From the NCBI GenBank assembly GCA_965223665.1, contig OZ245011.1:159179-223178 (forward strand): DNA of 64,000 nt, read 5' to 3'. Under the pieces are notes generated by a model, which was not told the DNA's origin, did no database searches, and was given only the letters and a program-made list of their open reading frames with translations. This stretch comes from Nitrospinaceae bacterium (lineage in GTDB: Bacteria; Nitrospinota; Nitrospinia; Nitrospinales; Nitrospinaceae). The position numbers were made by a program, and so were the translations under genes. This document shows positions 12,391 through 29,266 of this stretch, one piece after another; positions within the stretch are counted from its first letter, which is position 1, and every line of letters begins with the position of its first letter.

Positions 12391-14805
12391 TTAAACTGGC
12401 TCTTTTTCCAGGATATAAGGTTCAATAATATCGCCTGACTTTAAATCCTGGTATTTTTCAAATGAAAGTCCACACTCATAACCCGAAGCAACTTCCTTAA
12501 CATCGTCTTTAAATCTTTTTAGCGAATTGATTTTCCCATCATAAATCACTACGCTATCTCGAACCAACCGAGCCTGAGTATTTCTTTCAATTTGTCCAGA
12601 TAAAACAAAACAACCTGCAATATTTCCCACTTTGGGAATATGAAAAACTTCCCGGACTTCGGCGCGGCCCATTACTTTTTCTTTAAAAGTAGGTTCTAGT
12701 AGTCCTTCCATTGCTTTTTTAATATCGTTTATAGCATCATAGATGACACTGTAAAGTCGTACATCAACCTTTTCTTTCGAACTCATTATGCTTGCTTTTT
12801 CAGTAGGTCTTACATTAAACCCAATAATAATCGCAGTTGAAGCGCTGGCTAATAGTATGTCTGATTCAGTGATTCCACCGACAGCGTCATGGATTACTTT
12901 AACGCGAACCTGATCATTATCTAATTTAGAAAGAGCTTCTTTGACAGCTTGGATAGAACCTTGAACATCGGCTTTAATGATTAAGCTAAGCTCATGAATT
13001 TTGCCCTCCAGGATTTGCTGATGGAGGTCTTCCATGGTGATCCGAGGTTTTTGAGCCAAAGCAGTTTCTCTTTGTTTTTGAACTCGTAATTCACATAGTT
13101 GACGAGCACGTTTTTCATCTTTGACTACCATAAATTTATCGCCGGGTTCTGGGACCTCAGGAATCCCAATAATTTCAACCGGCATACAGACCGTTGCTTT
13201 GGAAATATTTTTTCCTTGATCATTGGTTAAAGCTCGCGCTTTGCCAAAATAATTACCAATAATGTAAGGGTCGCCCACGTGCAAATTACCCTTTTGAATG
13301 ATCACCGTTGCAACGGGTCCTCGACCTTTATCTAATTTTGACTCAATGACTATTCCTCTTCCTCTAAGCTTTGGGTTTGCCTTTAATTCCATAATTTCAG
13401 CTTGAAGTAAAAGTAGCTCAAGAAGATTATCAATTCCTAAATTCATTTTGGCAGAGACTTCAGTAAATATGGTTTGGCCACCCCAATCCTCCGGTAAGAG
13501 GCCTAATTCTGCTAATTGCTTTTTAACTTCATCTGGTTTTGCATCAGGCTTATCAATTTTGTTAATTGCTACCAGCAAAGGGACATTAGCAGCATTTGCA
13601 TGATCTATAGCCTCTTTTGTTTGAGGTTTGATTCCATCGTCTGCGGCTACCACTAAAACGACTATATCCGTAATTTGTGCTCCACGAGCTCGCATAGCGG
13701 TAAAAGCTTCATGACCAGGGGTATCAAGAAAAGTTATTGAAGACCCTTTTACTTTGGCTTGGTAGGCTCCAATGTGCTGAGTGATTCCCCCATGCTCACT
13801 TTCAGTAATATTGGTTTTTCGTATGGCATCTAAAAGTGAAGTTTTACCATGATCGACATGGCCCATAATGGTTACGATTGGAGGGCGCAATTGATGATCT
13901 GAAGGTAAATCCTGTTCTTCTTCTTCAAATTCAAGTTCCTCTTCCTCCTGAACCTTTTCAACTTCAAACCCGCGTTGATCTGCAATTTTGGAAGCCATCT
14001 CAAAGTTCAAACTTTGATTGATAGTGGCCATTACACCTAAACCCATAAGTTCTTTAATTATATCGTTTGCGGTACAGTTTAATTTTTCAGCTAAATCGCG
14101 AAGTTGAATGTTTTCACCAATTTGAACAGTTTCAAAACTTTCTTCTTCCGTGACTTCGGTTGGAGCCGGAGTGGAAGCGGGAGTTGATTTTTCATCGGGA
14201 GATATTGATTCATCTTTTTTTGACTCTTGAGTTTTTGCGCTTTCTTTTACTTTTTTTGTCGGTTTATCTTTAACTTTTTTAATATCTCCGAGTTCTTCAA
14301 GTTCCTCGGGTTTTACAATTCTTAAGCTAGGCTTTTTAGCTGCTTTTAATTTATCGGCTATGGGGGCTTCGCCTTCTCCTGGCTTTTGAGGTTTTTTTGA
14401 AGAATCGGTAGTTTTTTCTTTATCAACCTCTTTAAGGGCAGCTTTCACTTTTTTTACAGGTTTGGTGGTTTTTGGTGTATCCGTGGTACTCTCTGCTTTT
14501 TTTGCTTTGGTGGTCTTGGGGGGAGAGGATTTTTTAGCTTTTTTAGTTTCTGATTTCGTCGATGTTTTCTTTTTAGTTGTGGCTTTGGTAGCAGCTTTTT
14601 TCTTGGTTGTGGTTTTCTTTTTACTTTTTGGCGCTAATTTTTCCGAAAAAAATTCTCTGAGATAATTGGACATTTCTTCATCAATTGAACTCATATGGTT
14701 TTTTACTGGGTAATCTTTTTCTTTGAGTTCATCAATGATCTGGTCGTTAGAAACACCCAACTCTAACGCTAATTTGTTAACCCTAATTTTCGCCAAAAGC
14801 AACAC
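12391..14805 (-). CDS. infB: Translation initiation factor IF-2
   Basis: The GTPase motifs are GHVDHGKTSLLD, DTPGH and NKID. The N-terminal region is K/T/A-rich and low-complexity. The start codon is GTG. Confidence 0.97.
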   Translation of the reverse strand: MLLLAKIRVNKLALELGVSNDQIIDELKEKDYPVKNHMSSIDEEMSNYLREFFSEKLAPKSKKKTTTKKKAATKATTKKKTSTKSETKKAKKSSPPKTTKAKKAESTTDTPKTTKPVKKVKAALKEVDKEKTTDSSKKPQKPGEGEAPIADKLKAAKKPSLRIVKPEELEELGDIKKVKDKPTKKVKESAKTQESKKDESISPDEKSTPASTPAPTEVTEEESFETVQIGENIQLRDLAEKLNCTANDIIKELMGLGVMATINQSLNFEMASKIADQRGFEVEKVQEEEELEFEEEEQDLPSDHQLRPPIVTIMGHVDHGKTSLLDAIRKTNITESEHGGITQHIGAYQAKVKGSSITFLDTPGHEAFTAMRARGAQITDIVVLVVAADDGIKPQTKEAIDHANAANVPLLVAINKIDKPDAKPDEVKKQLAELGLLPEDWGGQTIFTEVSAKMNLGIDNLLELLLLQAEIMELKANPKLRGRGIVIESKLDKGRGPVATVIIQKGNLHVGDPYIIGNYFGKARALTNDQGKNISKATVCMPVEIIGIPEVPEPGDKFMVVKDEKRARQLCELRVQKQRETALAQKPRITMEDLHQQILEGKIHELSLIIKADVQGSIQAVKEALSKLDNDQVRVKVIHDAVGGITESDILLASASTAIIIGFNVRPTEKASIMSSKEKVDVRLYSVIYDAINDIKKAMEGLLEPTFKEKVMGRAEVREVFHIPKVGNIAGCFVLSGQIERNTQARLVRDSVVIYDGKINSLKRFKDDVKEVASGYECGLSFEKYQDLKSGDIIEPYILEKEPV

Positions 14806-14835: not shown

Positions 14836-16569
14836 TTAAACGTTTTCGTATTTTTCCATATGTAACTTTGCCTGACTCAAAATAAATTGGGCCGTATCCT
14901 CATCGATTCCTTCGATAGAAATCAGTTCTTCAATTGGAGTCACCGACAACTCGGCAATGGTTTGAAAATCATTTTCTTGCAACGTTTTAATGATGGTGCT
15001 ATCCACTTTTGTTAGCTCTTCAAGACCAAATTCCTGGTCTTCCTCTAATTCTTCTTCTTGAGCAGCCTCTTCTGCAGAATTAACTACACTCTCTTCTTCA
15101 GACTCTAAAGTTTCTAATTCATTTTGCGGTATTTGCTCTTCATCCAGCTCCAAGCTAGGCTCTTCTTCAGAAGATTCTTCGGAACTATCCGAAAATAATG
15201 AATCGACTTCACTTTTTTCTTTAATATCCGGGGCGGTGTAAACTAAATTATCTTCAATCTCAGGTGAAACAATTTCGGTGGAAGAAGCTGGTTTTCTATT
15301 TTTAATATATTCTTCCGAGAAACTGACAAGAGCTTCAGCTTTCTTTGGGCCGACTCCTTGAATCTTAATTAGTCCTTCTACCCCTTGGCTCAACACTTCA
15401 TCAAAAGTTACTACATTATTTGCAAATAAAATAGCAACTAACTTTTCACTAAAACCTTTAGTGTTTTTAATAATTTCAATGAAGTCTTCCTGCGGTTCTT
15501 TCTTTTTTACAAAAAGATCAGTTGCGCTTAAAATTGATTGGGCCTCTGACTCGCCTTTAATATCAATTTTCCATTTAACTAATTTCGCTGCCAAACGAAC
15601 ATTCTGACCTTTCTTTCCTATTGCTAATGACATCTGGTCATCGGCAACGATGATTGTCATATGTTTTTCTTCTTTGTTAGTGACAATTCTTGAAATTTTT
15701 GCTGGACTTAATGCATTGCGAATGAAAATCTCAGGGTCTTCAGAGTATTCTACGATATCTATCTTTTCACCACGCAACTCTTGCACAATTGATTGAACTC
15801 TTAGGCCTCGCATTCCAACACAAGCTCCCACGGCATCAATGTCTCTATCATTGGTTCGAACGGCAATTTTTGTGCGACCATTAGGTTCTCTCACAATCCC
15901 CATGATTTCCACCATGCCTTCACTTATTTCAGGAACTTCAAGTTCAAATAATCTTTTTATCAAGCCGACATGGGTACGAGAAAGAATAAGTAGGGTATTT
16001 TTAGAGGTTTTTTTTACTTCAAGCACATAGGCACGGACGCGATCTCCACGATTGAACTTTTCTCTGAAAACTTGTTCTCTTCGCGGTAATACTCCTTCAG
16101 CACGACCCAAATCTACAATAATGTCTCCATGCTCAAATCGTTGCACTATGCCACTAAGAAGTTCATTTTTTTTGTCCTGAAATTCGTTATAAACTATTTC
16201 GATTTCAGCCTCTCGGACCTTTTGTAAAATGACTTGTTTGGCTAATTGAGCTGCAATGCGTCCTAAATTTTCTAATTTTTGTGGAATTAGAATGGTTTCC
16301 TTTAATTGAGCTTCAGGAGATATTTTTGATGCTTCTTTTAAAGAAACTTCGAGATCTGGGTCTTTAACTTTAGAAACTACCGTTTTTTCAGCAAATATTT
16401 CAATTTCACCATTCTCCAAATTAAATTCACTATGAAGAATTACTTCAGGGGGCATTTTTTTTCGCGCGGCTGCCTCCACGGCTGATTTTATTGCTTCTAT
16501 CAAGACATCTTTATCGATGCCTTTTTCTCGGCAAAGCTGATCAATGATATGGATTACTTCTACGGTCAT
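14836..16569 (-). CDS. nusA: Transcription termination/antitermination factor NusA (long form with an acidic S/E-rich linker and C-terminal HhH repeats)
   Basis: It has the N-terminal, S1 and KH1/KH2 core (GACVGMRGLRVQSIVQEL, AIGKKGQNVRLAAKL), followed by an acidic tract and an HhH region. Confidence 0.95.
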   Translation of the reverse strand: MTVEVIHIIDQLCREKGIDKDVLIEAIKSAVEAAARKKMPPEVILHSEFNLENGEIEIFAEKTVVSKVKDPDLEVSLKEASKISPEAQLKETILIPQKLENLGRIAAQLAKQVILQKVREAEIEIVYNEFQDKKNELLSGIVQRFEHGDIIVDLGRAEGVLPRREQVFREKFNRGDRVRAYVLEVKKTSKNTLLILSRTHVGLIKRLFELEVPEISEGMVEIMGIVREPNGRTKIAVRTNDRDIDAVGACVGMRGLRVQSIVQELRGEKIDIVEYSEDPEIFIRNALSPAKISRIVTNKEEKHMTIIVADDQMSLAIGKKGQNVRLAAKLVKWKIDIKGESEAQSILSATDLFVKKKEPQEDFIEIIKNTKGFSEKLVAILFANNVVTFDEVLSQGVEGLIKIQGVGPKKAEALVSFSEEYIKNRKPASSTEIVSPEIEDNLVYTAPDIKEKSEVDSLFSDSSEESSEEEPSLELDEEQIPQNELETLESEEESVVNSAEEAAQEEELEEDQEFGLEELTKVDSTIIKTLQENDFQTIAELSVTPIEELISIEGIDEDTAQFILSQAKLHMEKYENV

Positions 16570-16572
16570 GGT

Positions 16573-17037
16573 TTAATTTATTTTTATTTCAAGTTTAGCC
16601 GATGCAATATTATCCATGGGAATGGATATAGTTTTCTCACCGACATCTAAAAAAAGAGTGCTCTCTTTGAAGTTCTCAATGATCCCTGTATATTTTCGTT
16701 TTTCTTGAATGGGAGAAAATAATGAAACTTGGATTGATTTTCCTAAATACCTTAAAAAATCTCTATCCTTTTTTAAAGGCCGATCTAAACCTGGCGAAGA
16801 TACTTCCAGGTAGTATCTATTTGGAATTAGATCTTCTACTTCAATGATATCTTCGATTTGTCGACTTATTTTCTTGCAGTCCTCAACAGTAATACCATTT
16901 TGTTTATCAATAAATACTCTTAGAAACCAATCTTTCCCCTCTTTTTTGTATTCAATGTCAACCAACTCTAAATTTGCATTTTCAACAATTGGTAAAACGA
17001 GCTCTCTAATCGATTGGGAAACGGAACTCTTGACCAT
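16573..17037 (-). CDS. rimP: Ribosome maturation factor RimP
   Basis: It contains LELVDIEYKKEGKDWFLRVFID and LEVSSPGLDRPL and is the first gene of the nusA operon. Confidence 0.9.
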   Translation of the reverse strand: MVKSSVSQSIRELVLPIVENANLELVDIEYKKEGKDWFLRVFIDKQNGITVEDCKKISRQIEDIIEVEDLIPNRYYLEVSSPGLDRPLKKDRDFLRYLGKSIQVSLFSPIQEKRKYTGIIENFKESTLFLDVGEKTISIPMDNIASAKLEIKIN

Positions 17038-17232: not shown

Positions 17233-18942
17233 TTAAAGGGCTTCAAGGATACTTGGTATAGTTTCTAATACTTCTGGGAAATCATAAAGTTCGGAATTGC
17301 CAGAATGTCTAATTTTTACCTCAATTTTCCCTGCATCCAAGTTTTTAGGACCAATAATCATTTGCAACGGAATTCCCAATAAGTCTGCATCTTTCAGCTT
17401 TGCTCCCAATCGGTCTGTCCTATCATCCAAAAGGGTTTCAATGTTAAGTTTTTTTAGGGTTTCATAGGATTGAATACATGCTTCCTTTAAAGCGTGATCA
17501 GAAAAGTTAACGGGAATAATAGCTGCTTGAAAAGGTGCAAGTGGAACAGGCCAAATGATACCATTATCGTCATGATTTTGCTCAATAGCAGCTGCAGCTG
17601 TTCTTCCAACTCCTATTCCATAACATCCCATTAACATGGTTTTTTCTTTGCCCTGATGATCTAAGAAATTAGATTTTAAGGCAGAGCTATATTTATCTCC
17701 TAAAATGAAAATGTGCCCCACCTCAATACCCCGACGAATTTTATAATACCCGTTTTCGCATTTTGGGCAAGGATCACCTTCTTCTATCGTTCGTAGATCG
17801 CCAGATTTTTTTATCTCGAAATCACGACCTATCTGCACACCGGAAAAATGAGCATCTTGAGTGTTTGCGCCTGTAATTAAATTGTGCATTTGGCTAACTT
17901 CATAATCCGCAAAAATTTCTAAATTTAAATTAACAGGACCTAAAAAACCAATAGGAAAATTTGTTTGTTCTTTTACTTGTAATTCATTAGCTGGGTGTAG
18001 CCAGTCACAACCAATAAGGTTTTTTAGTTTTGTGGGGTGAATCTGTCGATCGCCTCTGACTAAACCTGCGACAAGACCGTTTTCTGTTTCAAAAATAATT
18101 GTCTTTACAATATTTTGAGGAGCCACATTTAAAAATTTACTAACTTCTTCAACTGATTTTTTATTGGGAGTCTCAATTTTTTTTAATGAATCAATGTTAT
18201 TTGGAGATGATGAAGGCAATGGTAATTTTGAAGCTGCCTTTTCGATATTTGAAGCATAATCACATTTTTCGCAAAAACCGATCTCGTCTTCTCCGGAATC
18301 AGCAAGAACCATAAACTCATGTGAAAAGCTTCCACCAATTGTTCCTGAGTCTGCCTCAACCATTTTGAAATCCAATCCGCATCTTTCAAAAACTTTACAA
18401 TAGGCTTGTCTCATTTTTTCATAAACTTCCTGTGTGCTTTCTTGATCTACATGGAAGCTATACGCATCCTTCATCATAAACTCTCTTCCACGCATTATTC
18501 CAAAACGTGGTCGAACTTCATCTCGAAATTTGGTTTGGATTTGATAAAGGATAAGCGGGAGTTGGCGATAGGATTTTACCTCTTTACGAACAATATCCGT
18601 AATAACCTCTTCATGGGTGGGGCCGTAGCAAAACTCTCTATTATGCCTATCTTTAATTCGTAATAATTCTTTGCCATAAAGACCCCAACGGCCACTTTCC
18701 TGCCACAGTTCGGCTGGTTGGATACTAGGGAGGAAAACTTCTTGACCACCAATATTATTCATCTCTTCTCTTATAATTTGTTCTACTTTTTTAAGAACAC
18801 GCAAGCCTAAGGGCAGAATAGAATAAACACCTGAAGCCAGTTGACGAATCATGCCTGCACGTACCATTAGCTTATGACTGATAACCTCTGCATCTGAAGG
18901 TGACTGTTTAAGTGTAGGAATGAAAATTTGAGAATATCGCAT
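17233..18942 (-). CDS. proS: Proline--tRNA ligase (bacterial type with editing insertion)
   Basis: At 569 aa it carries class II motifs (FRDEVRPRFGIMRGREF, GCYGIGVGR) and an INS domain. Confidence 0.97.
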   Translation of the reverse strand: MRYSQIFIPTLKQSPSDAEVISHKLMVRAGMIRQLASGVYSILPLGLRVLKKVEQIIREEMNNIGGQEVFLPSIQPAELWQESGRWGLYGKELLRIKDRHNREFCYGPTHEEVITDIVRKEVKSYRQLPLILYQIQTKFRDEVRPRFGIMRGREFMMKDAYSFHVDQESTQEVYEKMRQAYCKVFERCGLDFKMVEADSGTIGGSFSHEFMVLADSGEDEIGFCEKCDYASNIEKAASKLPLPSSSPNNIDSLKKIETPNKKSVEEVSKFLNVAPQNIVKTIIFETENGLVAGLVRGDRQIHPTKLKNLIGCDWLHPANELQVKEQTNFPIGFLGPVNLNLEIFADYEVSQMHNLITGANTQDAHFSGVQIGRDFEIKKSGDLRTIEEGDPCPKCENGYYKIRRGIEVGHIFILGDKYSSALKSNFLDHQGKEKTMLMGCYGIGVGRTAAAAIEQNHDDNGIIWPVPLAPFQAAIIPVNFSDHALKEACIQSYETLKKLNIETLLDDRTDRLGAKLKDADLLGIPLQMIIGPKNLDAGKIEVKIRHSGNSELYDFPEVLETIPSILEAL

Positions 18943-19076: not shown

Positions 19077-20822
19077 TTATACTGGCGTTTTGGTGGAATA
19101 CAACTCCCGAGCCAATTCAATATCCTGCGGAAAGTGTATTTCCAACCAACCTTTATGGATTTCTAAGTAATGTATATCAAAACCACGATCGACCATTTCT
19201 TGAAGTAGGTCTGTAAATCGAAACTTAGAAATATCCTCAGCCTCTTGGATTTTTCCGACATGATTTTTGACACAATCATCGTAAGTATTTAAAAACTGCT
19301 CAGCTCCCCTTGGAGAGAACTTTGCCAACCCAACAAATTCATGGGTTGAGATGCTTGAGTCAATTCTCTTGCCGATTTTAGCAACTGTATTTTGATAGTC
19401 AAAGTTTATGTTGCGACGGAGACGATTTTTTTTATTCTTGCTTACTACAAAATCCTGTAATTTTCCCGGAGTAGGCCCAAGGTATTGAATGGAATTGTCA
19501 ACGACAACTACAATATCTTCTTTACAAGCTAATAATTGGCTGAATATGTTTTCAGCGACTAACAAATCGGAATATAAAATCAGAAATCCATTTTGAAGCT
19601 TATTTTTAGCCGCTAAAATTGAATGAAGTTCGGTTCCTTTTTTGTAGTCAGTATGATGTATAAAGTTAACGCCTTCAGCACTCATTTTGCCGTTTTCATA
19701 TCCCGTAATTACATTGATATCAGTTAAAAAATTTGCGTTCAGTGCTTCAATTTGCCTTTTCAAAAGGGTTTTTCCTGAAATTTCAAGCATGGCTTTGGGT
19801 ATACTTCCAATAGCGGACTGAAGATCAGGGGCCGAACCTGCAGCTGGAATAATTACGGGTATATTTTTATTGGAAACATCCTGCTTATCTTTTTCTTTTA
19901 CATCCAGAAATCCAACTGCTTCAAAAATTTCCTTTACCGGGGTGCAAAATGGGTCTGCTTCGAAAGATCGTTGATTTAACAATATGGATCTTGTCGTATC
20001 CATCATGGCTTTATAAGCTGACCGTAAAAGATGGTTTGCATAAATAATAATTTGAAATCCTGATTTTTGTAATTCTGATTCCACAATGTTGTTATAAGTG
20101 GTAGGTACACAAACCAGAGGTTTTTTTACTCCCAATTCAGCTTGAAGGTCTTGATATTTTTGTGCGAACTCTAAAATTTCCCCAGGGTCTTTTGATTTTG
20201 AATGGATCATTATCCCATCTGCCCCTGCGGTTAAATATGCGCGAGCCCTTTGTAGAGCATCCTTTAATCCTGTTCCTGCAATCAGGCTTTCCAAACGGGC
20301 GATAATCATAAAGTCCGGTGTCATTTGAACCTCTTTGCCTCGACGAATTTTGTGCGCAAATACTTCCGGTTCTTGCAACGATTGATTGGTTCCAGCTTCT
20401 AAGCTATTTCTCTTAGGAAATACTTTGTCTTCAATAATGACAGCTGAAACTCCTGCACGTTCTAACTTTGAAACCGTATATTCAAAAATATTTGGATCTC
20501 CGCCCGTATCGCCATCAACAATCATGGGTTTCCGAGTGACCGCTAGAATTTCGTTGATCGTATGAAATCGGGAATCAAAACTAATAACTTCAATATCTGG
20601 GTGACCTTTGGAGGCTGAATCTGTCAAGCTGCTTTCCCAAATAGCATCAAATTCTCTAATTATAGTATCATTTTCAAAAGTTCCCTCAATTCGAGCACAA
20701 TCTGCAATAATACCGCTCAATCCATTGTGGGCTTCCATTACTCGAATAAGTTTTCCCTGGTTCAATAGTTTTCTTAACTGGTTGCGTCGGTTTTCGGGTA
20801 ATATTTTACTTAAAAGAGTCAT
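19077..20822 (-). CDS. Phosphoenolpyruvate mutase fused to a C-terminal nucleotidyltransferase (cytidylyltransferase-like) domain
   Basis: Residues 1-300 carry the PEP mutase motifs MEAHNGLSG, IVDGDTGGD, IIEDKVFPKRNS and IARLES. From about residue 320 there is an NTP-transferase fold (IPVIIPAAGS...IPKAMLEISGKTLL). Confidence 0.85.
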   Translation of the reverse strand: MTLLSKILPENRRNQLRKLLNQGKLIRVMEAHNGLSGIIADCARIEGTFENDTIIREFDAIWESSLTDSASKGHPDIEVISFDSRFHTINEILAVTRKPMIVDGDTGGDPNIFEYTVSKLERAGVSAVIIEDKVFPKRNSLEAGTNQSLQEPEVFAHKIRRGKEVQMTPDFMIIARLESLIAGTGLKDALQRARAYLTAGADGIMIHSKSKDPGEILEFAQKYQDLQAELGVKKPLVCVPTTYNNIVESELQKSGFQIIIYANHLLRSAYKAMMDTTRSILLNQRSFEADPFCTPVKEIFEAVGFLDVKEKDKQDVSNKNIPVIIPAAGSAPDLQSAIGSIPKAMLEISGKTLLKRQIEALNANFLTDINVITGYENGKMSAEGVNFIHHTDYKKGTELHSILAAKNKLQNGFLILYSDLLVAENIFSQLLACKEDIVVVVDNSIQYLGPTPGKLQDFVVSKNKKNRLRRNINFDYQNTVAKIGKRIDSSISTHEFVGLAKFSPRGAEQFLNTYDDCVKNHVGKIQEAEDISKFRFTDLLQEMVDRGFDIHYLEIHKGWLEIHFPQDIELARELYSTKTPV

Positions 20823-21114
20823 TTATTTTCGTCTCAAAAATTTCGTGATTTAGATATTCCCTAATCCATGAAGCTATATAAATTTCTTCGGTATCGTAAT
20901 TTTTAAAGGCTTCAATCAGAACTTTCATTTGGTTCAAAATTGGAAGTTTTTTATCTAAAAAAACTAATCCTTTTCCATTTAATTTGCAAAACCCACTTTT
21001 AATAGGGATATCTTCATTAGAAAGGTTAAAATATTGGATATCAATTCCTAATTTATCTGCCACCGATTTTAATTCTTCCCACCGCTGGTCATTATTATAG
21101 GTTTTGGCTAACAT
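20806..21114 (-). CDS. Hypothetical 102-aa protein, translationally overlapping the PEP mutase gene
   Basis: The ORF has an AAGGG SD-like element ~6 nt upstream. Its 3' end overlaps the next start by 17 nt. I recognise no family. Confidence 0.45.
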   Translation of the reverse strand: MLAKTYNNDQRWEELKSVADKLGIDIQYFNLSNEDIPIKSGFCKLNGKGLVFLDKKLPILNQMKVLIEAFKNYDTEEIYIASWIREYLNHEIFETKINDSFK

Positions 21115-21142: not shown

Positions 21143-22513
21143 TCAGTTAATAATTCTCATGATATCATTATAAAAAGCAAAAATCATTAGAGATATGAGC
21201 ATAAATAATCCAACTTGCGAAGCTCGTTCTCGATTTTTCTCGCTTACGGGACGGCCTTTTATCATTTCAATTAAAAAGAAGAAAATGTGACCACCATCTA
21301 AAATTGGAATGGGCAATAGATTTAATAACCCCAGGTTAATACTTAAAAGGGCGGTTAATCGAATGAGTTCGTTAAAGCCCTGTTTTGCCTGTTCACCATA
21401 TATTTGAAAAATCAGAATAGGGCCACCTATGCTTTCGGCGGAAATTGAACCGAATATCATTTTTTTTATGCTGGTAAAAATTAGATAGATTAATTTCCCA
21501 GTTTCAATAAATGAACGTTTAATTGCTCCAAAAAAACCATATTGCTCGAGAATCAGGTCTCCTGTAATGGCAATTCCTAACCAGCCCAACTCTATTTCTT
21601 TTCCGTTTTCATCTTGAATGATTTTAGATTCAGGAGTTACTTTGATTTCTAAATCTAGCCCATCTCTTTTGATTTGAACATTTAACTCTTTTCCCGCTTT
21701 GTCTTTGGTGGTTTCTTTAAGATCGGTCCAACTACGGATTTTTGTTCCATCAATGGAAACTAATTGATCTCCCTCTAATAATCCCGCTTTATGAGCTGCT
21801 GAGCCCTCTTTGACATAGCTTATATTATGAACCAAAGGGTTAATGCCAATCAGTCCCACCCTTTCTTTTTCTCCAAATAAATCAGGAACTTCTTCCGTGA
21901 CAGGAGTGATTCCTACTTCAAAAAGTTCTTTCTTATCCCTTTCAATTAAAAACTTTAGTTCTTTGTTTGGGGAATTGCGAACAATTTTCACTAGCCGATC
22001 CCAAAACTGAATTGGTTGGCCTTCGACTTCGACTATTCGATCACCTGATTTTAGTCCTGCTTCTAAGGCGGGAGAAGAATCTCTAACAGTTCCAATGGTG
22101 GTTCCTAAGGTAGAAACACCGTTCATATAAACTACAACATAAATTGCTATAGCAAATAATATGTTAAATAAGGGGCCCGCAAATGCGATAGCCAACCTAT
22201 GGAGGACAGGTGCAGTTGAAAAAGAACCTTTGCTATCTTCAAGTTCTTCGCCCGGGTCCTCTCCTTTCATTTTTACATAGCCTCCTAACGGAATGGAGGC
22301 AATTAAATATTCAGTGCCTGATTTTGTAAACCCTAAAAGTTTAGGGCCAAATCCCAGGGCAAATTTTTCGACTATGACTCCGCATTTTCTAGCAACCAAA
22401 AAATGCCCAAGTTCATGAACAAAAATTAAAGCTGCCAAACCACCAAGAAACACTACCATCTTAGTGCCAAATGCAAAAAAAGATTCTAATGAAAAAACTG
22501 CTGTTTCAATCAT
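21143..22513 (-). CDS. rseP: RIP metalloprotease RseP (site-2 protease, M50) with two PDZ domains
   Basis: It has HELGHFLVA near the N-terminus, two PDZ-like segments, and a C-terminal LNLLPIPILDGGH motif. Confidence 0.9.
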   Translation of the reverse strand: MIETAVFSLESFFAFGTKMVVFLGGLAALIFVHELGHFLVARKCGVIVEKFALGFGPKLLGFTKSGTEYLIASIPLGGYVKMKGEDPGEELEDSKGSFSTAPVLHRLAIAFAGPLFNILFAIAIYVVVYMNGVSTLGTTIGTVRDSSPALEAGLKSGDRIVEVEGQPIQFWDRLVKIVRNSPNKELKFLIERDKKELFEVGITPVTEEVPDLFGEKERVGLIGINPLVHNISYVKEGSAAHKAGLLEGDQLVSIDGTKIRSWTDLKETTKDKAGKELNVQIKRDGLDLEIKVTPESKIIQDENGKEIELGWLGIAITGDLILEQYGFFGAIKRSFIETGKLIYLIFTSIKKMIFGSISAESIGGPILIFQIYGEQAKQGFNELIRLTALLSINLGLLNLLPIPILDGGHIFFFLIEMIKGRPVSEKNRERASQVGLFMLISLMIFAFYNDIMRIIN

Positions 22514-22515
22514 AA

Positions 22516-23196
22516 TTAATTTGATTTTTTATCTGAAGAAGTAAAGTCAATCAACTCAACACCTGGCGGAACCTGGAAATGAAAAGTTTCATCAGGAGTG
22601 TCGGGATTGATCGTAATGTTTGTAAAGATCATTTCTGTTTGATTACCTAGTTTATCGTAAACTCGGGAGCCAATTATCTGATAACTACTATTGTCCGCAA
22701 ATATGGTCATCCGGTCAATATTATCATTGGATTCTTTAGGAATTAATTCGACACTTACGGAATCTTTATTTCGAGTTACTTTCCCAATATTAAACGTTTG
22801 GGTTAGTTTCCCTTTCCCTGCTAGAAACAGGGCGGGAGTATTTGAAGAATAAATGCTTCCAATTTGCATTTTAGTAACTTGGCTTTCTTCAGGCAAAAAA
22901 AGCCAAAGAGCTTTTGCATCACTAATTAGTATTTGCGGGTCCGGAGCAGTGTAATCCCATTTCATACGTCCAGGTTTTTTAATAATTACTTCACCTTTTG
23001 CAGTTTGAGTTTGGCCCATTACTTTTAAAAATGATTTTTGGATGAAATCAGCTTTAAATGTTTGGGTTTCGTCATACCGCTTTTGAATAGCATCAATTAT
23101 GTTTTGGGAATCATTGGCAAATGCAGTTTGAGACCAGAAATAAAAAATAAAAGCGGTTATCAAAAAACGATTTGTTTTGAGGGCGGCTGAAAACAT
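22516..23196 (-). CDS. lolA: Outer-membrane lipoprotein carrier LolA-like protein
   Basis: It has a signal peptide and then the pattern TFKADFIQKSF...KGEVIIKKPGRMKWDYTAPDPQILISDAKALWLFLPEESQV, which is typical of LolA. Confidence 0.75.
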   Translation of the reverse strand: MFSAALKTNRFLITAFIFYFWSQTAFANDSQNIIDAIQKRYDETQTFKADFIQKSFLKVMGQTQTAKGEVIIKKPGRMKWDYTAPDPQILISDAKALWLFLPEESQVTKMQIGSIYSSNTPALFLAGKGKLTQTFNIGKVTRNKDSVSVELIPKESNDNIDRMTIFADNSSYQIIGSRVYDKLGNQTEMIFTNITINPDTPDETFHFQVPPGVELIDFTSSDKKSN

Positions 23197-23207: not shown

Positions 23208-23822
23208 TTATATTAAATTAACTTTTCTATTATTTATCTGTATTTTTTTTTCTGCGATTAATTTAATGGCCTCCGGATAGATTTTATGCTCCTGCTCCAA
23301 GATCCGTTTGGATAGTGATTCTTCATCATCATTGTCTAAGACAGGAACGACAGCTTGAAGTATGATAGGCCCAGAATCCACCTCTTCGTTCACATAGTGA
23401 ACGGTACAACCAGAAAATTTAACACCATAATCAATTGCTTTTTGTTGCACATTTAATCCCGGGAATGCTGGAAGTAGGGAAGGGTGAATATTTATAATTT
23501 TGTTTGGAAACGATTGTATGAATTCTTTCCCTAGAATTTTCATGTAACCTGCCAAGCAGATCAAGTCTACATTATGTTCTTTTAGTTCAGTGGCCAAAGC
23601 CAAATCATAATCAGATTTGGAGTTAAACTTCTTAGGGTCCAAAAAAATTGACTTTATTCCATGGCTCTTTGCTCTTTCCAAAGCAGGTGCATCCTTTTTG
23701 TTACTTAAAATGATTTCAATGGTTGCTGGAATGTTTCCCCGAGAAATTTGATCAATAATTGCTTGCAAATTGGTTCCCCGACCGGAAACCAGGACACCGA
23801 TTTTTAAATCATCCGAAGCCAT
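23208..23822 (-). CDS. purN: Phosphoribosylglycinamide formyltransferase
   Basis: It contains VLVSGRGTNLQAII, the INIHPSLLP motif and HYVNEEVDSGPII. Confidence 0.92.
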   Translation of the reverse strand: MASDDLKIGVLVSGRGTNLQAIIDQISRGNIPATIEIILSNKKDAPALERAKSHGIKSIFLDPKKFNSKSDYDLALATELKEHNVDLICLAGYMKILGKEFIQSFPNKIINIHPSLLPAFPGLNVQQKAIDYGVKFSGCTVHYVNEEVDSGPIILQAVVPVLDNDDEESLSKRILEQEHKIYPEAIKLIAEKKIQINNRKVNLI

Positions 23823-23893: not shown

Positions 23894-26119
23894 TTAAACA
23901 GCTACGGGTTGCAAAATGTCTGCCTGTATTTGTTTTAACAAGCCTATGTTTTGTGTATGGCCAGATTTATGGGCTTTTATATAACCTCGGATTGGTCTGC
24001 CAAGTAAGTAAAAGTCTCCCAATATGTCCAAAATTTTATGTCGAGCAAATTCGTTTTCATAACGCAATTTCGTATTTAAGACTTTTTGGTCTCCCAAAAG
24101 AATAAAGTTGTCAAGTTTACCCCCTGCGCCAAACCCCATTTTTGTTAACTGCGCAACTTCTTCGACAAATCCAAAAGTTCTAGCCGGAGCAATTTCTTCT
24201 TTAAATCCTTTAGAGTCAACAAACTCAAAGGTGTGATCCATAACTCCAATGGGTGCAGGATATTCCATATGGTACGACACTTTGAAACCATTATAGGGTT
24301 CAATGCTAATGGAAGGTCCCTTTTCATCCTCTGCTCCATAACTATAAGTTTTGTCAATTATTAATTCGTCCATAAGCTCGTCTTGTTCTTCAAATTCACC
24401 ATCTTCAATTAATTGACAAAAATCTTTTGCCGACCCATCCATCACTGGAGCTTCATCACTGATTTTAATAAGAAGATTTGAAATGCGATACATATGCAAG
24501 GTGGCCATTATATGTTCAATGGTTAGAACAGATGAATATCCTTTTTTCAGACAGGTTGCATAATCAGTAGATTGGACATTTTCTAAACGGGCGGGAATAG
24601 TATCTCCGCTAGAAATATCCCCGAATACAATTCCACTCCCTGGTGGCATAGGTTGCATAATTAAACCTGTTTTTATTCCAGAGTGCAGTCCATGGCCGCA
24701 AAGCACAACACTACGTTTAAGTGTTCTTTGGAATTGATGTTGAGGCGAACCACTTTTGGCAGCACTTAACGGAAGAACAATATTATGTTGCTGAAGTTTG
24801 GTTTTTAGTTTGTCGGTATCAGTTTTTAATGTTTTACTTGTTTCATCTAAATTCCATTTGTTTTTTCGAAGATGATGAATAATAAATTCACGCTCCCAGC
24901 TTCTTTCTGCATCTTGTAATGAGTCAAAGCTTTCAAATACCGACTTATCCCAATGTTGTTCCAGGTTGCGAATGGATTCGGGTAAGTCATGGAATCGAAT
25001 GGGATCCTTTGAAGGAACTTTAGATGAAAGTTGATCTAGAACTTTCCTTAATTCCTTTAAATTTTCTGGCCACTCATATCCCATTAACGCCTTAAGAGCT
25101 TCCTCAGAAATATCCCTTGGGCTGTGTCCGCTTTCTTCCGCCTGCTCCGCAAAGTATTTTTCCACTAGATTCGGAATGAGAGCTGAGTTTTCTCTTAGGG
25201 GAGAAATGGTTAATTGGTTCTTATTTAAAATCTGATATAGATCTTTATTAAATTTTCCTTTATCTACCAACTCCTGTAAATTTTGGGTTGTTGAAGCAAA
25301 AATTCGGTTAGGAAGTAGTTCTAAGTTTGTATTTCCTTCGGATCCTTTATATGCCAAAACTTCGGCTAATTTTTCTTGAAGTGTTTTATTTAGGCCTTCT
25401 ATATTTTTTAAATAAATTGATCTGGGGTTATAAGAAGGTTCAGAATTTTTATTATCCGTTTTTGATTTTCGATTAGTAATAAAAAGCTCAGATTGGACTG
25501 CAGATTTGGTTCGAATTGCACAATTTACCTTTACTAAGGGATATTGGGAATTTTTACTTGCATTATGGATAGCCTGAGCAATAAATTCTTTTGCTGTACC
25601 AATTTCTCCAGTAATTATCACAGGTTCGTTATTTTTAGAGGCATCATTTATTCCTCTTTTAACGTCTACCATGAGTTGGAAACAATGAGGAAGTTCTTGC
25701 TTTCCTAAAGACTTTTTGCCATTAGAATGAAATCTGGTTTTTTGAAGTTGGAGGGCTTTTTCTACAGATTGAACTAACTCATCTAATGAGAATGGTTTCT
25801 CAATAAAATCATATGCTCCCAACTTTGTGGCTTTGACGGCCGTATCTACTGTCCCATGACCAGACATAACAAGTACTTCTATTTCAGGGTGGTAGGTTTT
25901 AACGGTTTTCAAAACTTCAATGCCATCCATTCCAGGGATCCAAATATCAAGAAGAATTAATTCGGGTGGATCAGCCTGGATCATTTCCAGGGCAGTAATT
26001 CCATCTTCTGCAGTAGTGATTTCATAACCTTCATCTTTTAAAATATCCTGAAGAGAAGATACAATATTTTTTTCGTCGTCAACGATTAAAATTCTTTCTT
26101 TAGACAAGGAAACCTCCAA
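23894..26119 (-). CDS. lpxC: Fusion protein: response-regulator receiver, degenerate sigma54-type AAA+ domain, Fis-type HTH, and UDP-3-O-acyl-GlcNAc deacetylase (LpxC)
   Basis: The REC domain (aa 8-124) keeps DD14-15, D58, S86 and K108. The AAA-like domain (aa ~145-385) has GEIGTAK in place of GESGTGK, no GAFTGA, and IYLKNIEG in place of the Walker B DE. The HTH-like segment is EREFIIHHLRKNKWNLDETSKTL. The LpxC domain (aa ~463-741, nt 23894..24733) has GHGLHSG, TIEHIMATL, HKILDILGD and HKSGH. Confidence 0.9.
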   Translation of the reverse strand: MEVSLSKERILIVDDEKNIVSSLQDILKDEGYEITTAEDGITALEMIQADPPELILLDIWIPGMDGIEVLKTVKTYHPEIEVLVMSGHGTVDTAVKATKLGAYDFIEKPFSLDELVQSVEKALQLQKTRFHSNGKKSLGKQELPHCFQLMVDVKRGINDASKNNEPVIITGEIGTAKEFIAQAIHNASKNSQYPLVKVNCAIRTKSAVQSELFITNRKSKTDNKNSEPSYNPRSIYLKNIEGLNKTLQEKLAEVLAYKGSEGNTNLELLPNRIFASTTQNLQELVDKGKFNKDLYQILNKNQLTISPLRENSALIPNLVEKYFAEQAEESGHSPRDISEEALKALMGYEWPENLKELRKVLDQLSSKVPSKDPIRFHDLPESIRNLEQHWDKSVFESFDSLQDAERSWEREFIIHHLRKNKWNLDETSKTLKTDTDKLKTKLQQHNIVLPLSAAKSGSPQHQFQRTLKRSVVLCGHGLHSGIKTGLIMQPMPPGSGIVFGDISSGDTIPARLENVQSTDYATCLKKGYSSVLTIEHIMATLHMYRISNLLIKISDEAPVMDGSAKDFCQLIEDGEFEEQDELMDELIIDKTYSYGAEDEKGPSISIEPYNGFKVSYHMEYPAPIGVMDHTFEFVDSKGFKEEIAPARTFGFVEEVAQLTKMGFGAGGKLDNFILLGDQKVLNTKLRYENEFARHKILDILGDFYLLGRPIRGYIKAHKSGHTQNIGLLKQIQADILQPVAV

Positions 26120-26150: not shown

Positions 26151-26828
26151 TCAACCGGCTGGCGCAGGTTCGACTAGATTTGAAAATACATATTCCTCGT
26201 GTTTTTGAAAATCAAAATAAAAAATGGATTTCCCAATTTTTAAAAAGTTTTTTTCATATTTAGTCTGAGGAATTCCATTCCTAACATGGGAAAACCCACT
26301 TTTTTTGTTAAGGTTCAACAAACTAGGCTCTTCTTCTAAATAAGATAACATTTCTGTTGCATAGGGTTCAAAATCAGTAGCAATTTTTAACGTGCCTCCT
26401 GGGGCAATCTTTTGGGCTAACACATTAATGAAGTCAGGTTTGATTAACCTACGCTTAATGTGTCTTTTCTTTGGCCACGGATCTGGGAAGTTAATAAAAA
26501 TTTCATCCAACTCACCATCTTTAAAAAGAACCGGTACTCGCTCCTTAGCATCCCCATAAATGATTCGTACGTTTGGAATTTGAAAACGATCTAACTTCAT
26601 AATCGTTTTGCGGATGCCCTTATGGTAAAAGTCAAGGCCTAAAAAGTTGCTATTCGGGTCACTAATAGCCATATCTAATAAAAATTTTCCATTACCAAAA
26701 CCAATTTCTAATTTTAAGGGTTTTTGGCATTTAAAATTCTCATCCCAATTTGGATAAACATCTGTATCTATAAAAAAGGGGTGACCGGACGCAATTTGTT
26801 CAAAAGGAATTAATGGCTTTGAGGACAT
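26151..26828 (-). CDS. trmB: tRNA (guanine46-N7)-methyltransferase
   Basis: It contains the LEIGFGNGKFLLDMA SAM-binding motif and INFPDPWPKKRH. Confidence 0.85.
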   Translation of the reverse strand: MSSKPLIPFEQIASGHPFFIDTDVYPNWDENFKCQKPLKLEIGFGNGKFLLDMAISDPNSNFLGLDFYHKGIRKTIMKLDRFQIPNVRIIYGDAKERVPVLFKDGELDEIFINFPDPWPKKRHIKRRLIKPDFINVLAQKIAPGGTLKIATDFEPYATEMLSYLEEEPSLLNLNKKSGFSHVRNGIPQTKYEKNFLKIGKSIFYFDFQKHEEYVFSNLVEPAPAG

Positions 26829-26854: not shown

Positions 26855-27322
26855 TTATTCATCATGTATTGTTTTTATTTGAATGACTTCATATTCCAAG
26901 CTTTCTCCACCAATGGAGAGAGAAATTTCGTCTCCTTCCATTTTACCTAAAAGAGATCGGCCAATAGGGGAAGCTAATGAAACTTTTCCATCCTCCGGTG
27001 AAACTTCTTCTGGAAAAACCAGGAAGTAAGTTTTTTCCTCACCTGAATTTGCATTCTTTAATACTAATGAACTACCAAGTCCTGAACGATCTTTTGGAAT
27101 CCGATCAATATTGATTGCCATAACATCACTAATTCGCTTTTGTAATTGAGAAATTCTTGCCTCTAAAAACATTTGCCTTTCCTTAGCGGCCTTATATTCA
27201 GCGTTTTCACTTAAGTCTCCCATTTCTGTTGCCGTTTTAAGAGCTTTGGGAATATCGATCTCAAGTTCATTTTTTGATTCCATTAAGGATTTTTCTAATT
27301 TATCAAGAATAGGTAATCTCAT
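26855..27322 (-). CDS. greA: Transcription elongation factor GreA
   Basis: It has the GDLSENAEYKAAKERQ coiled-coil tip motif and a C-terminal FKBP-like domain, at 155 aa. Confidence 0.9.
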   Translation of the reverse strand: MRLPILDKLEKSLMESKNELEIDIPKALKTATEMGDLSENAEYKAAKERQMFLEARISQLQKRISDVMAINIDRIPKDRSGLGSSLVLKNANSGEEKTYFLVFPEEVSPEDGKVSLASPIGRSLLGKMEGDEISLSIGGESLEYEVIQIKTIHDE

Positions 27323-27474: not shown

Positions 27475-28038
27475 TTAAGGTGAATTGTTTAAGGTTTTAG
27501 GATTTCCTGGGCCTTTTTTATGGGGTTCAATAATCGATAGTCGGACTTTTGCGATCCCCTCGTTTGCTAATCCTAATATTTTGGCGGCTTTGTAACTAAG
27601 GTCTATAATCCGGTTTTTTACGAAAGGTCCGCGATCATTGATTCTAACCACAACTTCTTTACCGTTTTCCAGGTGGGTAACTCGGACTAAGGAATTAAAA
27701 GGAAGTGTTTTATGTGCAGCAGTTAAAGAGTACATATTAAAATGCTCTCTATTAGAAGTAAATTCTCCATGAAATCTTTTACCATACCAGGAAGCTATTC
27801 CTTCCTGGGAAAAACCCTTAGAGTCCTTCAGGGGATAGTAAACTACTCCCTTCACCCCATAGGGTTTAAAATACTTCGATAATTGCCCAGAATCTCTAAG
27901 TGCTTGTTGTTTTGCCATTTGGATAAACAGTAAGGACGAGGCTGAGCAGGTAAGTATTGCTGGACCAAATATAAATCCAGGTAGCAAAAATAACAAACTA
28001 AAAAAGAGTAGATACTTTATTTTATAGATTGGGACCAT
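27475..28038 (-). CDS. rlpA: Septal ring lytic transglycosylase RlpA family protein (DPBB domain)
   Basis: After a signal or anchor segment it reads [60 protein letters not shown]. Confidence 0.85.
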
Positions 28039-28411: not shown

Positions 28412-29266
28412 ATGCGCGAAGTCTTACTAAAGTTAATTGAAGAAAAAAGTAATATACCCCCTTTGCCTGATATTCTTTTGAGGTTGGAGTCAAAAATTGA
28501 AGATCCGAAGAGTAAGGTCAGTGATATTGCTATTCTAATTGAAACGGAACCCATCTTAGCGGGTAGATTAATTAAATTGTCGAATAGTGTTTTTTTTGGA
28601 GGTGGGAGAGAAAAGGTAGAGCATTTACATAAAGCCATTCTTCGTTTAGGTCTAAAAATGATTTTGGATTTAGCTTATACCTTGGAAATCCCCAAAATAT
28701 TTTCAAAGGGAAATGCATTCGATCAAAAAAAGTTTTGGCAACATTCCTTAGCGGTGGCAATTTTATCAAGATTATTAAGTACGGAAATAAAGGCTTTTAA
28801 TACCGAACCAGATTTATGTTACCTCTCAGGATTAATGCATGACATAGGAATTTTGGTTTTTAATTTTTTAATTCCATCAAAATATGCGGGTTTTCTTCAG
28901 CAAATTAAAGGTTCCGATTGTCCCCTTGAGGAGTTAGAAAGAGAAGAATTTGGAATAGCTCATCCGGAACTGGGATCTCTTTTTATCAAGAAATGGTGGC
29001 CGGTACCCAGTGAAGTTGTGACTGCTGTGGATAAACATTATTTAAGAGCTTCTGAAAAAGGAAAAAACTATCCAGAACTTTTAGTCGTAATTTTAGCGAA
29101 CTCTATCGCAAATAACTATCAAATGGGTCACGAAATTTGTAATGACGTGGAGCCATTTAATTCGAAGTTTATTGAAACATTGGGGATAGGAAATCGACAA
29201 ATGGAAGATATTGTTGATGAAACGCGTGAAAGCCTACAAATGGCTAAACAGGTATTGTTTAAGTGA
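28412..29266 (+). CDS. HDOD domain signalling protein
   Basis: It contains IPPLPDILLRLE...DIAILIETEPILAGRLIKLSNS, GLMHDIGILV and a GIAHPELG HD-like core. Confidence 0.8.
   Translation: MREVLLKLIEEKSNIPPLPDILLRLESKIEDPKSKVSDIAILIETEPILAGRLIKLSNSVFFGGGREKVEHLHKAILRLGLKMILDLAYTLEIPKIFSKGNAFDQKKFWQHSLAVAILSRLLSTEIKAFNTEPDLCYLSGLMHDIGILVFNFLIPSKYAGFLQQIKGSDCPLEELEREEFGIAHPELGSLFIKKWWPVPSEVVTAVDKHYLRASEKGKNYPELLVVILANSIANNYQMGHEICNDVEPFNSKFIETLGIGNRQMEDIVDETRESLQMAKQVLFK

Follow-up and report, generated by a model that had tools for sequence, protein, structure and literature searches.

An NtrX-like receiver protein fused in frame to LpxC in Nitrospinota, a candidate response regulator with a lipid A enzyme as its output

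The committed step of lipid A synthesis is carried out by LpxC, a major antibiotic target that most Gram-negative bacteria cannot live without. Cells have to keep its activity in balance with phospholipid synthesis, and the known means of control are proteolysis, protein partners and transcription. In E. coli, LpxC has a long C-terminal tail that bears the FtsH degron. A paper on the degron of E. coli LpxC is cited in PMC5007114. In D. vulgaris, lpxC is the single mapped target of the response regulator DVU2934, and in S. fumaroxidans, lpxC adjoins the operon of the orthologous regulator (PMC3333781). NtrX, TyrR, HupR, HsfA, PhhR and VpsR form a recognized class of atypical enhancer-binding proteins (PMC6158489). 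In this report, we analyze a gene in a 64,000-nucleotide stretch of DNA from a Nitrospinaceae bacterium (contig OZ245011.1, positions 159,179 to 223,178; this whole stretch is called the window) that encodes an NtrX-like N-terminal region followed, in the same reading frame, by LpxC. A receiver attached to the enzyme would be a different solution to the problem of LpxC control, that is, direct post-translational control through two-component signaling. We think that the gene probably, though by no means certainly, encodes an orphan response regulator with the LpxC enzyme as its output. The arrangement appears to be fixed in a phylum of globally important marine nitrite oxidizers, and a trimmed form recurs in other phyla.

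The gene is a single uninterrupted open reading frame (ORF) on the minus strand, listed among the window's ORFs with 741 aa counted from a TTG codon (Table 1). Residue numbers below follow this count, which was used in an earlier first-pass annotation of the window. Pfam searches matched Response_reg (PF00072, E = 9e-32), Sigma54_activat (PF00158, E = 3e-24), AAA_lid_14 (PF25601, E = 1.2e-12) and LpxC (PF03331, E = 2.5e-78; 263.7 bits against a cutoff of 27, covering profile positions 1-267 of 268), whereas HTH_8 (PF02954), a helix-turn-helix (HTH) family, had no match, even at E<=1. With NCBIfam models, aa 464-734 scored 221 bits for lpxC (TIGR00325; cutoff, 187). The best model for the N-terminal part is NtrX (NF051870), which spans aa 9-443 with 272 bits; its cutoff is 600, and the protein is therefore not a member of that family.

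By all the family characteristics that could be assessed, namely a full-length profile match, the diagnostic residues and the two-domain fold, the C-terminal part is an LpxC. Residues E535/H536, T648/F649, H694/K695/D698/D702 and H721 align with E77/H78, T190/F191, H237/K238/D241/D245 and H264 of the P. aeruginosa enzyme. In E. coli numbering, the zinc ligands are His79, His238 and Asp242, and the catalytic residues are Glu78 and His265; Thr191, Lys239 and Asp246 complete the set. The fused enzyme ends about 6-9 residues past the catalytic domain, and the long C-terminal tail is absent.

In contrast, the features of a sigma54 activator are lacking: the GAFTGA motif, a competent AAA+ ATPase and a Fis-type HTH. 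When the N-terminal part is aligned to Brucella NtrX (5M7N, E = 3e-63), GPSGAGKE is replaced by GEIGTAKE, LYLDEV by IYLKNI, and FREDLFHRL, which contains the arginine fingers, by FNKDLYQIL, so that both fingers are gone. A working sigma54 activator is ruled out by the loss of GAFTGA together with the residue census given below. Binding of c-di-GMP in the manner of FleQ or VpsR seems unlikely on inspection by eye only: the segment after Walker A reads IAQAIH, without the Arg-Asn of FleQ.

The first-pass annotation had described a single ORF with an intact receiver quintet (D14, D15, D58, S86 and K108), a complete set of LpxC zinc and catalytic residues, and an AAA+ domain with a degenerate Walker B and no GAFTGA loop. 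The Pfam match to the receiver, the residue-by-residue comparison with P. aeruginosa LpxC and the alignment to NtrX agree with this description. The same annotation had also reported a Fis-type HTH-like segment, which does not hold up as such: the segment aligns weakly to the C-terminus of NtrX and is a relic in this lineage.

To establish the spread of the fusion, we searched the LpxC part against one genome per GTDB species, which returned 63 loci. All untruncated Nitrospinota loci carry the fusion as one ORF of 672-808 aa; with that of the window there are 46 such ORFs, some of them on single-contig chromosomes. A wider and exhaustive search covered 1.84 billion cluster representatives, and 377 proteins in all were fetched. 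The long form accounts for 180 cluster representatives, derived from NCBI, ENA, JGI, Logan and Tara. More than 120 representatives at 57-65% identity share the same four Pfam domains, and the named ones are all Nitrospinota (Nitrospina, Nitromaritima and Nitrospinaceae); full-length fusions reach down to 36% identity. The fusion is fixed across Nitrospinota. Among the outgroup loci, those of Burkholderiales type (L051-L057 and L063) have a plain LpxC of 303 aa, L060 has one of 286 aa, and L058, L059 and L061 have a 438-aa LpxC-FabZ protein. Another locus, L050, has a 434-aa ORF, which is the size of the short receiver (REC)-LpxC proteins described below. Four metagenome-assembled genomes (MAGs) labeled Nitrospirae or Nitrospirota (L003, L005, L045 and L049) carry the Nitrospinota-type fusion, with 52-82% identity in the LpxC domain; either these taxonomic labels are wrong or the family is wider than the names imply. 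Public annotation names the proteins simply LpxC or NtrX, and these labels make the architecture easy to overlook.

An assembly or annotation artifact that joined two neighboring genes would also produce such an ORF, but this explanation has practically no chance of being correct and is refuted by the comparative data. The same in-frame junction, whose continuity the first-pass annotation had wanted verified, occurs in 46 independent assemblies, several of them closed or near-closed chromosomes, as well as in the 180 cluster representatives. Moreover, no ATG, GTG or TTG is found in the window gene within the 25 codons preceding the LpxC domain. In that stretch, only 1 of the 46 loci has a start codon accompanied by a Shine-Dalgarno-like motif. 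Translation of free LpxC from an internal start is thus ruled out, and LpxC is made solely within the fusion. At the other end of the gene, the TTG annotated as its start (26119) overlaps a GGAGG motif belonging to another TTG in the same frame, at 26107. Because GGAGG lies 5 nt before the latter, the true start is probably 26107, which would give a protein of 737 aa and would shift the residue numbers by 4. A database entry identical to the window protein (P0001) has 737 aa, and homologs begin with MSKERIL or MAKERVL.

To assess conservation within the family, we made a residue census of 180 long and 79 short fusions and of 80 unfused relatives. The phosphorylation site of the receiver is almost invariant. 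Its phospho-acceptor Asp occurs in 179/180 long, 78/79 short and 80/80 unfused proteins, its Lys (K108) occurs in 179/180, 79/79 and 80/80, respectively, and the five phosphorylation residues are about 99% kept over some 260 fusion proteins. The eight zinc and catalytic residues of LpxC (equivalents of E78, H79, T191, H238, K239, D242, D246 and H265) are present in all 180 long fusions and in 78-79 of the 79 short ones. LpxC is also the most conserved portion of the fusion, with 74-83% identity across Nitrospinaceae. In an alignment of the 46 sequences, mean column conservation is 0.81 for REC and 0.83 for LpxC, compared with 0.56 for the AAA+ core, 0.53 for its lid, 0.19 for the HTH-like segment and 0.22 for the junction linker. 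Whatever the architecture, strong purifying selection has kept a receiver that looks phosphorylatable in company with a catalytically intact LpxC.

The AAA+ domain gives a different picture. The Walker B Asp is kept in 41 of 180 long fusions, compared with 72 of 80 unfused relatives, and the Walker B Glu in none (unfused, 70/80). Both arginine fingers are likewise missing from all 180, although the first is present in 72 and the second in 73 of the 80 unfused proteins, and a GAFTGA-like motif is found in 0/180 versus 54/80. At the sensor-II position, Arg (76/80 unfused) has given way mostly to Lys (Arg in 30 and Lys in 143 of 180). The P-loop, in contrast, is kept: the Walker A Lys is found in 177/180 long and 79/80 unfused proteins, and the second Gly in 175/180 and 80/80, with Ala in 2/180, in the window's own lineage only. 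These patterns predict an AAA+ domain incapable of hydrolysis throughout the family. Since the P-loop is kept while the Walker B Glu and the arginine fingers are lost, the domain probably still binds nucleotide without hydrolyzing it in most members; NtrX has been crystallized with ATP and with ADP, according to the titles of PDB entries. In the window lineage, the Gly-to-Ala change in the P-loop may be a sign that nucleotide binding, too, is disappearing. The first-pass annotation had judged the ATPase to be disabled, and the family-wide loss of the Walker B Glu and arginine fingers agrees with it, although the Walker A change that it had included is confined to 2 of 180 long forms.

Four architectures occur among the 377 fetched proteins: REC-AAA-HTH-LpxC (132), REC-AAA-LpxC (48), REC-LpxC (91) and REC-HTH-LpxC (2). 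Thus, 48 of the 180 long forms and all 91 REC-LpxC proteins have no HTH. About half of the Nitrospinaceae lineages retain an HTH-like segment. L024, L035 and L040 have lost part of it, and L002, L004, L022 and L041 as well as the deep branches L044-L049 lack it altogether. In precomputed domain lists, PF02954 is assigned to none of the 120 closest homologs. However, the deep-branching long form P0124 has a precomputed PF02954 match, and P0123 and P0130 have canonical-looking recognition helices.

The trimmed forms are varied. Many proteins of 420-460 aa are REC-LpxC without any AAA+ domain, as confirmed with Pfam for P0151 and P0140, and their source names include "Deltaproteobacteria", Thermodesulfobacteriota, Ca. 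Dadabacteria and Spirochaetota MAGs. In the REC-HTH-LpxC proteins P0132 (Nitrospinota, 505 aa) and P0136 (Ca. Entotheonellia, 491 aa), the AAA+ domain alone is deleted. This form is real and abundant, because the P0132 cluster has 35 members on contigs of up to 157 kb. The gene for the short form P0140 (L065, 8001-9365) heads the string [REC-LpxC]-LolA-RseP-RimP-NusA-YlxR-IF2; since this is the same gene string as in the window, P0140 is the ortholog minus the AAA+/HTH module. In P0140, the acceptor Asp is replaced by Asn (VVLLNIW), and every LpxC catalytic residue is kept. P0140 is thus a natural non-phosphorylatable variant that could reveal which receiver state permits LpxC activity.

In a crude neighbor-joining (NJ) tree of REC plus LpxC, short and long forms interleave in at least five places, from which we infer that repeated internal deletion of the AAA+/HTH module gave rise to the trimmed forms. 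REC and LpxC are the constant core of the family, with everything in between optional. The "pseudo-ATPase scaffold" to which the first-pass annotation had assigned control does not seem to be needed for REC-LpxC coupling, given that the AAA+/HTH module appears to have been deleted several times. The family appears to preserve a staged dismantling of an enhancer-binding protein after its fusion to an enzyme, from the full REC-AAA+-HTH-LpxC form through loss of the HTH and then of the AAA+ domain to plain REC-LpxC, which would make it a clear case of which parts signaling needs.

Structure predictions differ between the two forms. AlphaFold models the window protein as well-folded modules (pLDDT 76), with a helix at 112-132 and pLDDT <50 at 133-143. 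For the short form P0154, pLDDT is 90.7 and pTM is 0.80, and the five models are alike, which suggests that the short form has a fixed REC-LpxC arrangement. In Foldseek searches, the LpxC half of the window model matches LpxC of A. aeolicus (TMt ~0.86) and P. aeruginosa (TMt ~0.78), and that of the short-form model matches LpxC at TMt 0.86-0.94. Matches are to individual modules only: the N-terminal half resembles NtrX, NtrC1 and NtrC4, and the C-terminal half resembles LpxC.

We propose the following origin and mechanism. An NtrX-like atypical enhancer-binding protein would have become fused upstream of lpxC, after which its transcription-factor functions would have decayed while strong selection held the coupling of REC to LpxC. 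An unlinked kinase or a small phosphodonor would phosphorylate D58 and thereby alter the alpha4-beta5-alpha5 face of the receiver and the helical linker. The resulting change in N-terminal packing or dimerization would set LpxC activity and hence flux into lipid A. In most members, the AAA+ domain could serve as a spacer or dimerization scaffold with nucleotide bound but not hydrolyzed. By analogy with CheB and NtrC1, we lean slightly toward an unphosphorylated receiver that keeps LpxC low, with phosphorylation relieving this restraint; the opposite sign is nearly as likely. Two points argue the other way or allow either sign: rare acceptor-less variants keep LpxC intact, and most Gram-negative bacteria depend on LpxC for viability. 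Direct phospho-control may stand in for proteolytic control, as the fusion lacks the long tail with the E. coli FtsH degron. The first-pass annotation had proposed phosphorylation-dependent allosteric control; the phospho-site and the LpxC site are indeed nearly invariant over about 260 fusions, but the allostery itself we only infer.

Several observations weigh against this proposal. In P0140 and in one long form in which the acceptor is changed from Asp to Ser, LpxC is intact although the acceptor is absent, so the enzyme must work unphosphorylated in those lineages. The argument for regulation is drawn entirely from conservation, and AlphaFold predicts no confident packing between domains for the long form as a monomer (pTM 0.42). 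Neither the window nor the surroundings of any homolog examined yielded a cognate kinase. Also, when the crude NJ tree is rooted at its midpoint, some short-only clades fall at the base, which leaves some probability for a REC-LpxC ancestor with later insertion of the AAA+ domain. Finally, the closest unfused regulators do not adjoin lpxC. Specifically, lpxC is not adjacent to the two closest, semi-degenerate relatives P0166 and P0169; an origin by fusion of a regulator with a neighboring target gene was therefore set aside, as the published work on D. vulgaris and S. fumaroxidans would be its sole basis.

Regarding the kinase, the first-pass annotation had noted that the window encodes none, and none was detected with Pfam among the 40 larger ORFs that we scanned. 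A crude scan with regular expressions for kinases over 70 loci returned one kinase-like fragment, located 8 kb away in L035. Orphan response regulators are common, and a missing nearby kinase is not decisive.

The N-terminal part might act on the amount of LpxC rather than on its activity. Like RssB, REC and the pseudo-AAA+ domain could serve, depending on phosphorylation, as a handle for degradation or as an adaptor and so set LpxC abundance through an AAA+ protease, following the logic of FtsH/LapB in E. coli with a different degron. According to work cited in PMC3333781 and PMC5007114, proteolysis controls LpxC levels in those bacteria that have been studied, and both the tail-less end of the fused enzyme and its flexible, basic junction linker would suit such a handle. 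However, P-loop conservation would be left unexplained, and the fixed REC-LpxC arrangement predicted for the short form fits direct allostery or occlusion at least equally. We therefore consider control of stability unlikely. Another improbable reading holds that the fusion is an accessory paralog that provides conditional, signal-dependent flux while a separate stand-alone lpxC does the housekeeping. In the window, tblastn detected no second lpxC, receiver or bacterial enhancer-binding protein, a count that covers 64 kb of a genome with a further ~4.2 Mb. Against a paralog are the score of the fused LpxC above the NCBI equivalog cutoff, its high identity across Nitrospinaceae and the conserved string of housekeeping and envelope genes around the fusion. 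In addition, the best LpxC-only matches inspected from the wider search included no close unfused LpxC: one was a fragment of a fusion, one came from a contig of 902 bp, and one was a frameshift-like sequence. A survey of LPS genes lists one LpxC for N. gracilis 3/211 (PMC5007114 supplement), but its table gives one match per genome.

A canonical Fis-type HTH survives in long forms from deep branches, as in P0124 and to judge by the HTH-like segments of P0123 and P0130, which raises the question of whether the protein is a trigger enzyme. Like PutA or BirA, it would be a bifunctional regulator, here a DNA-binding atypical enhancer-binding protein of the NtrX (sigma70) type, with LpxC serving both as enzyme and as flux sensor and perhaps with envelope genes as transcription targets. 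Among NCBIfam models and PDB entries, NtrX matches best, and a dedicated response regulator binds the lpxC promoter in D. vulgaris, but the window protein and its 120 closest homologs lack an HTH_8 assignment, the HTH is gone from more than a quarter of long forms and from all REC-LpxC proteins, and its columns are the least conserved. This explanation may apply to some deep lineages, is unlikely for the window protein, and overall seems to us a poor prospect. At the other extreme, the N-terminal part could be evolutionary baggage, a decaying remnant of an accidental fusion that regulates nothing and is attached to a constitutive LpxC. The decay of AAA+ catalytic residues, GAFTGA and HTH, the repeated deletion of the AAA+/HTH module and the absence of a nearby kinase would all be expected of a remnant. 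The receiver, however, is conserved as well as the enzyme, and its phosphorylation residues are kept in several phyla. Receiver-less LpxC proteins are few among the 377 fetched and mostly of fragment length, those inspected (P0146, P0162 and P0172) being truncated or frameshift-like, and the deletion variants with complete ends (REC-LpxC and REC-HTH-LpxC) all retain REC. Because REC is kept in these variants and its phosphorylation residues are so well conserved, a neutral remnant is disfavored, and we regard it as very unlikely.

The reading that we favor, a response regulator with LpxC as its output, can be extended to a broader proposal that we offer as a tentative and rather doubtful one. 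In Nitrospinota and several allied phyla, the sole LpxC would be a response-regulator output, the committed step of lipid A synthesis would be gated by a phosphorelay instead of FtsH/LapB-type proteolysis, and the catalytically dead AAA+ domain that keeps its P-loop would be a nucleotide-binding allosteric module. If this is true, the AAA+ domain would link outer-membrane synthesis to the cellular energy or nucleotide state.

The coordinates of the fusion gene, its parts and its neighbors are listed in Table 1. The fusion, probably an orphan response regulator, lies among housekeeping and envelope genes. Between positions 20700 and 28500, no terminator-like site was seen on the minus strand, and counts of promoters and terminators are at chance level, which is compatible with co-transcription.

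Table 1. Positions of the fusion gene, its domains and motifs, and neighboring genes in the window
Feature	Position	Strand	Remarks
Whole fusion ORF	23894..26119	-	Stop codon 23894-23896; TTG 26119 = 741 aa
GGAGG Shine-Dalgarno	26113..26117	-	5 nt upstream of second in-frame TTG (26107)
Receiver (REC), aa 10-119	25763..26092	-	D58 acceptor at 25946-25948; D14, D15, S86, K108 present
REC-AAA+ linker, aa 120-149	25673..25762	-	REC alpha5 helix runs on to ~aa 132, then disorder (AlphaFold)
Sigma54-type AAA+ core, aa 150-303	25211..25672	-	Predicted catalytically dead; PF00158 and residue census
Walker A GEIGTAKE, aa 171-178	25586..25609	-	Lys kept; second Gly is Ala
Variable Lys/Ser-rich loop, aa 214-233	25421..25480	-	Replaces GAFTGA sigma54-contact loop
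Walker B remnant IYLKNIEG, aa 235-242	25394..25417	-	K238, N239 in place of Asp, Glu
AAA+ lid, aa 313-390	24950..25183	-	PF25601; sensor-II position is Lys (K355)
Vestigial Fis/NtrX-type HTH, aa 400-447	24779..24922	-	Weak alignment to NtrX C-terminus; no HTH_8 match
Junction linker, aa 448-463	24731..24778	-	Flexible, basic, poorly conserved; no internal start codon
Full-length LpxC, aa 464-732	23924..24730	-	Begins at native QRTLK N-terminus
LpxC active site, E535/H536	24512-24517	-	
LpxC active site, H694..D702	24014-24040	-	
LpxC active site, H721	23957-23959	-	
RlpA-like	27475-28038	-	Pfam
GreA	26855-27322	-	Pfam
TrmB	26151-26828	-	Pfam
PurN	23208-23822	-	Pfam; in 38/63 related loci
LolA	22516-23196	-	Pfam; in 40/63 related loci
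RseP	21143-22513	-	Pfam; in 34/63 related loci
PEP-mutase/nucleotidyltransferase	19077-20822	-	Pfam; in 25/63 related loci
ProS	17233-18942	-	Pfam
RimP	16573-17037	-	Pfam
NusA	14836-16569	-	Pfam
IF2	12391-14805	-	Pfam

Other genes of the window were noted in passing. In the same-strand string downstream of lolA-rseP, the 581-aa PEP mutase is fused to a MobA-like nucleotidyltransferase, which suggests phosphonate biosynthesis and may indicate phosphonate-modified envelope glycans or lipids. Between this gene and rseP lies a 102-aa ORF (20806-21114, minus strand) that has no Pfam match and is conserved in 13 related loci. An HDOD protein with a putative signaling role is encoded divergently (28412-29266, plus strand), just upstream of the rlpA-greA-trmB-fusion string, and is found in 24/63 related loci. 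Farther away on the plus strand are tandem HtrA/DegP-type serine proteases (50146-51597 and 51692-53080), each with Trypsin_2 and two PDZ domains, that fit envelope quality control. A 1427-aa FG-GAP/CBM96 repeat protein (38927-43210, plus strand) and an 895-aa reprolysin-like M12 metallopeptidase with fn3 and CBM96 domains (43831-46518, plus strand) are probably secreted or surface-located. The minus strand also encodes a 249-aa Hda-like, DnaA-related AAA+ protein (Bac_DnaA and Hda_lid; 48231-48980).

The first-pass annotation knew of no characterized example of this architecture, and the literature that we searched likewise yielded no description of REC-(AAA+)-LpxC proteins and none of a lipid A biosynthetic enzyme as a response-regulator output. 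The fusion can, however, be compared with known systems part by part. NtrX of Brucella abortus (5M7N/5M7O/5M7P) is the best match to aa 10-443, both by sequence and with Foldseek. It has the same REC-AAA+-HTH order and also lacks GAFTGA, so the missing sigma54 contact is not unusual for a module whose nearest relative is NtrX. The likeness is one of layout only: NtrX keeps Walker B, the arginine fingers and a working HTH, all three of which the fusion has lost, and it has no fused enzyme, whereas the fusion has no adjacent NtrY-like kinase. Next in similarity (E = 1e-50 to 1e-54) come NtrC1 and NtrC4 of Aquifex aeolicus (1NY5, 3DZD and 4L4U), canonical sigma54 activators on which the receiver exerts negative control. 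They and the fusion place a long helical linker between the receiver and the AAA+ domain. In NtrC1, this arrangement holds the off-state dimer. Unlike the fusion, which has none of these residues, NtrC1 and NtrC4 carry arginine fingers, GAFTGA and the Walker B D-E pair and form ATP-hydrolyzing rings that remodel the sigma54 holoenzyme.

Known LpxC proteins, such as those of P. aeruginosa, E. coli and A. aeolicus, are stand-alone enzymes of ~270-305 aa, or are LpxC-FabZ fusions (PRK13188) like those of the outgroup loci, and their known control is by proteolysis (FtsH/LapB) or transcription without a covalent receiver. DVU2934 shows that, in a neighboring bacterial group, a two-component system already acts on the committed lipid A step, although control there is transcriptional and involves separate proteins. 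The layout of the REC-LpxC short forms is matched exactly by the methylesterase CheB, the diguanylate cyclases PleD/WspR and the HD-GYP protein RpfG, which combine a receiver with a conserved phospho-site and a catalytic domain in one chain and offer the most plausible model for how the fusion works. The differences are that the output here is a lipid A enzyme and that the Nitrospinota form interposes an ATPase-dead AAA+ domain. The whole protein is best placed among the response regulators with enzymatic output.

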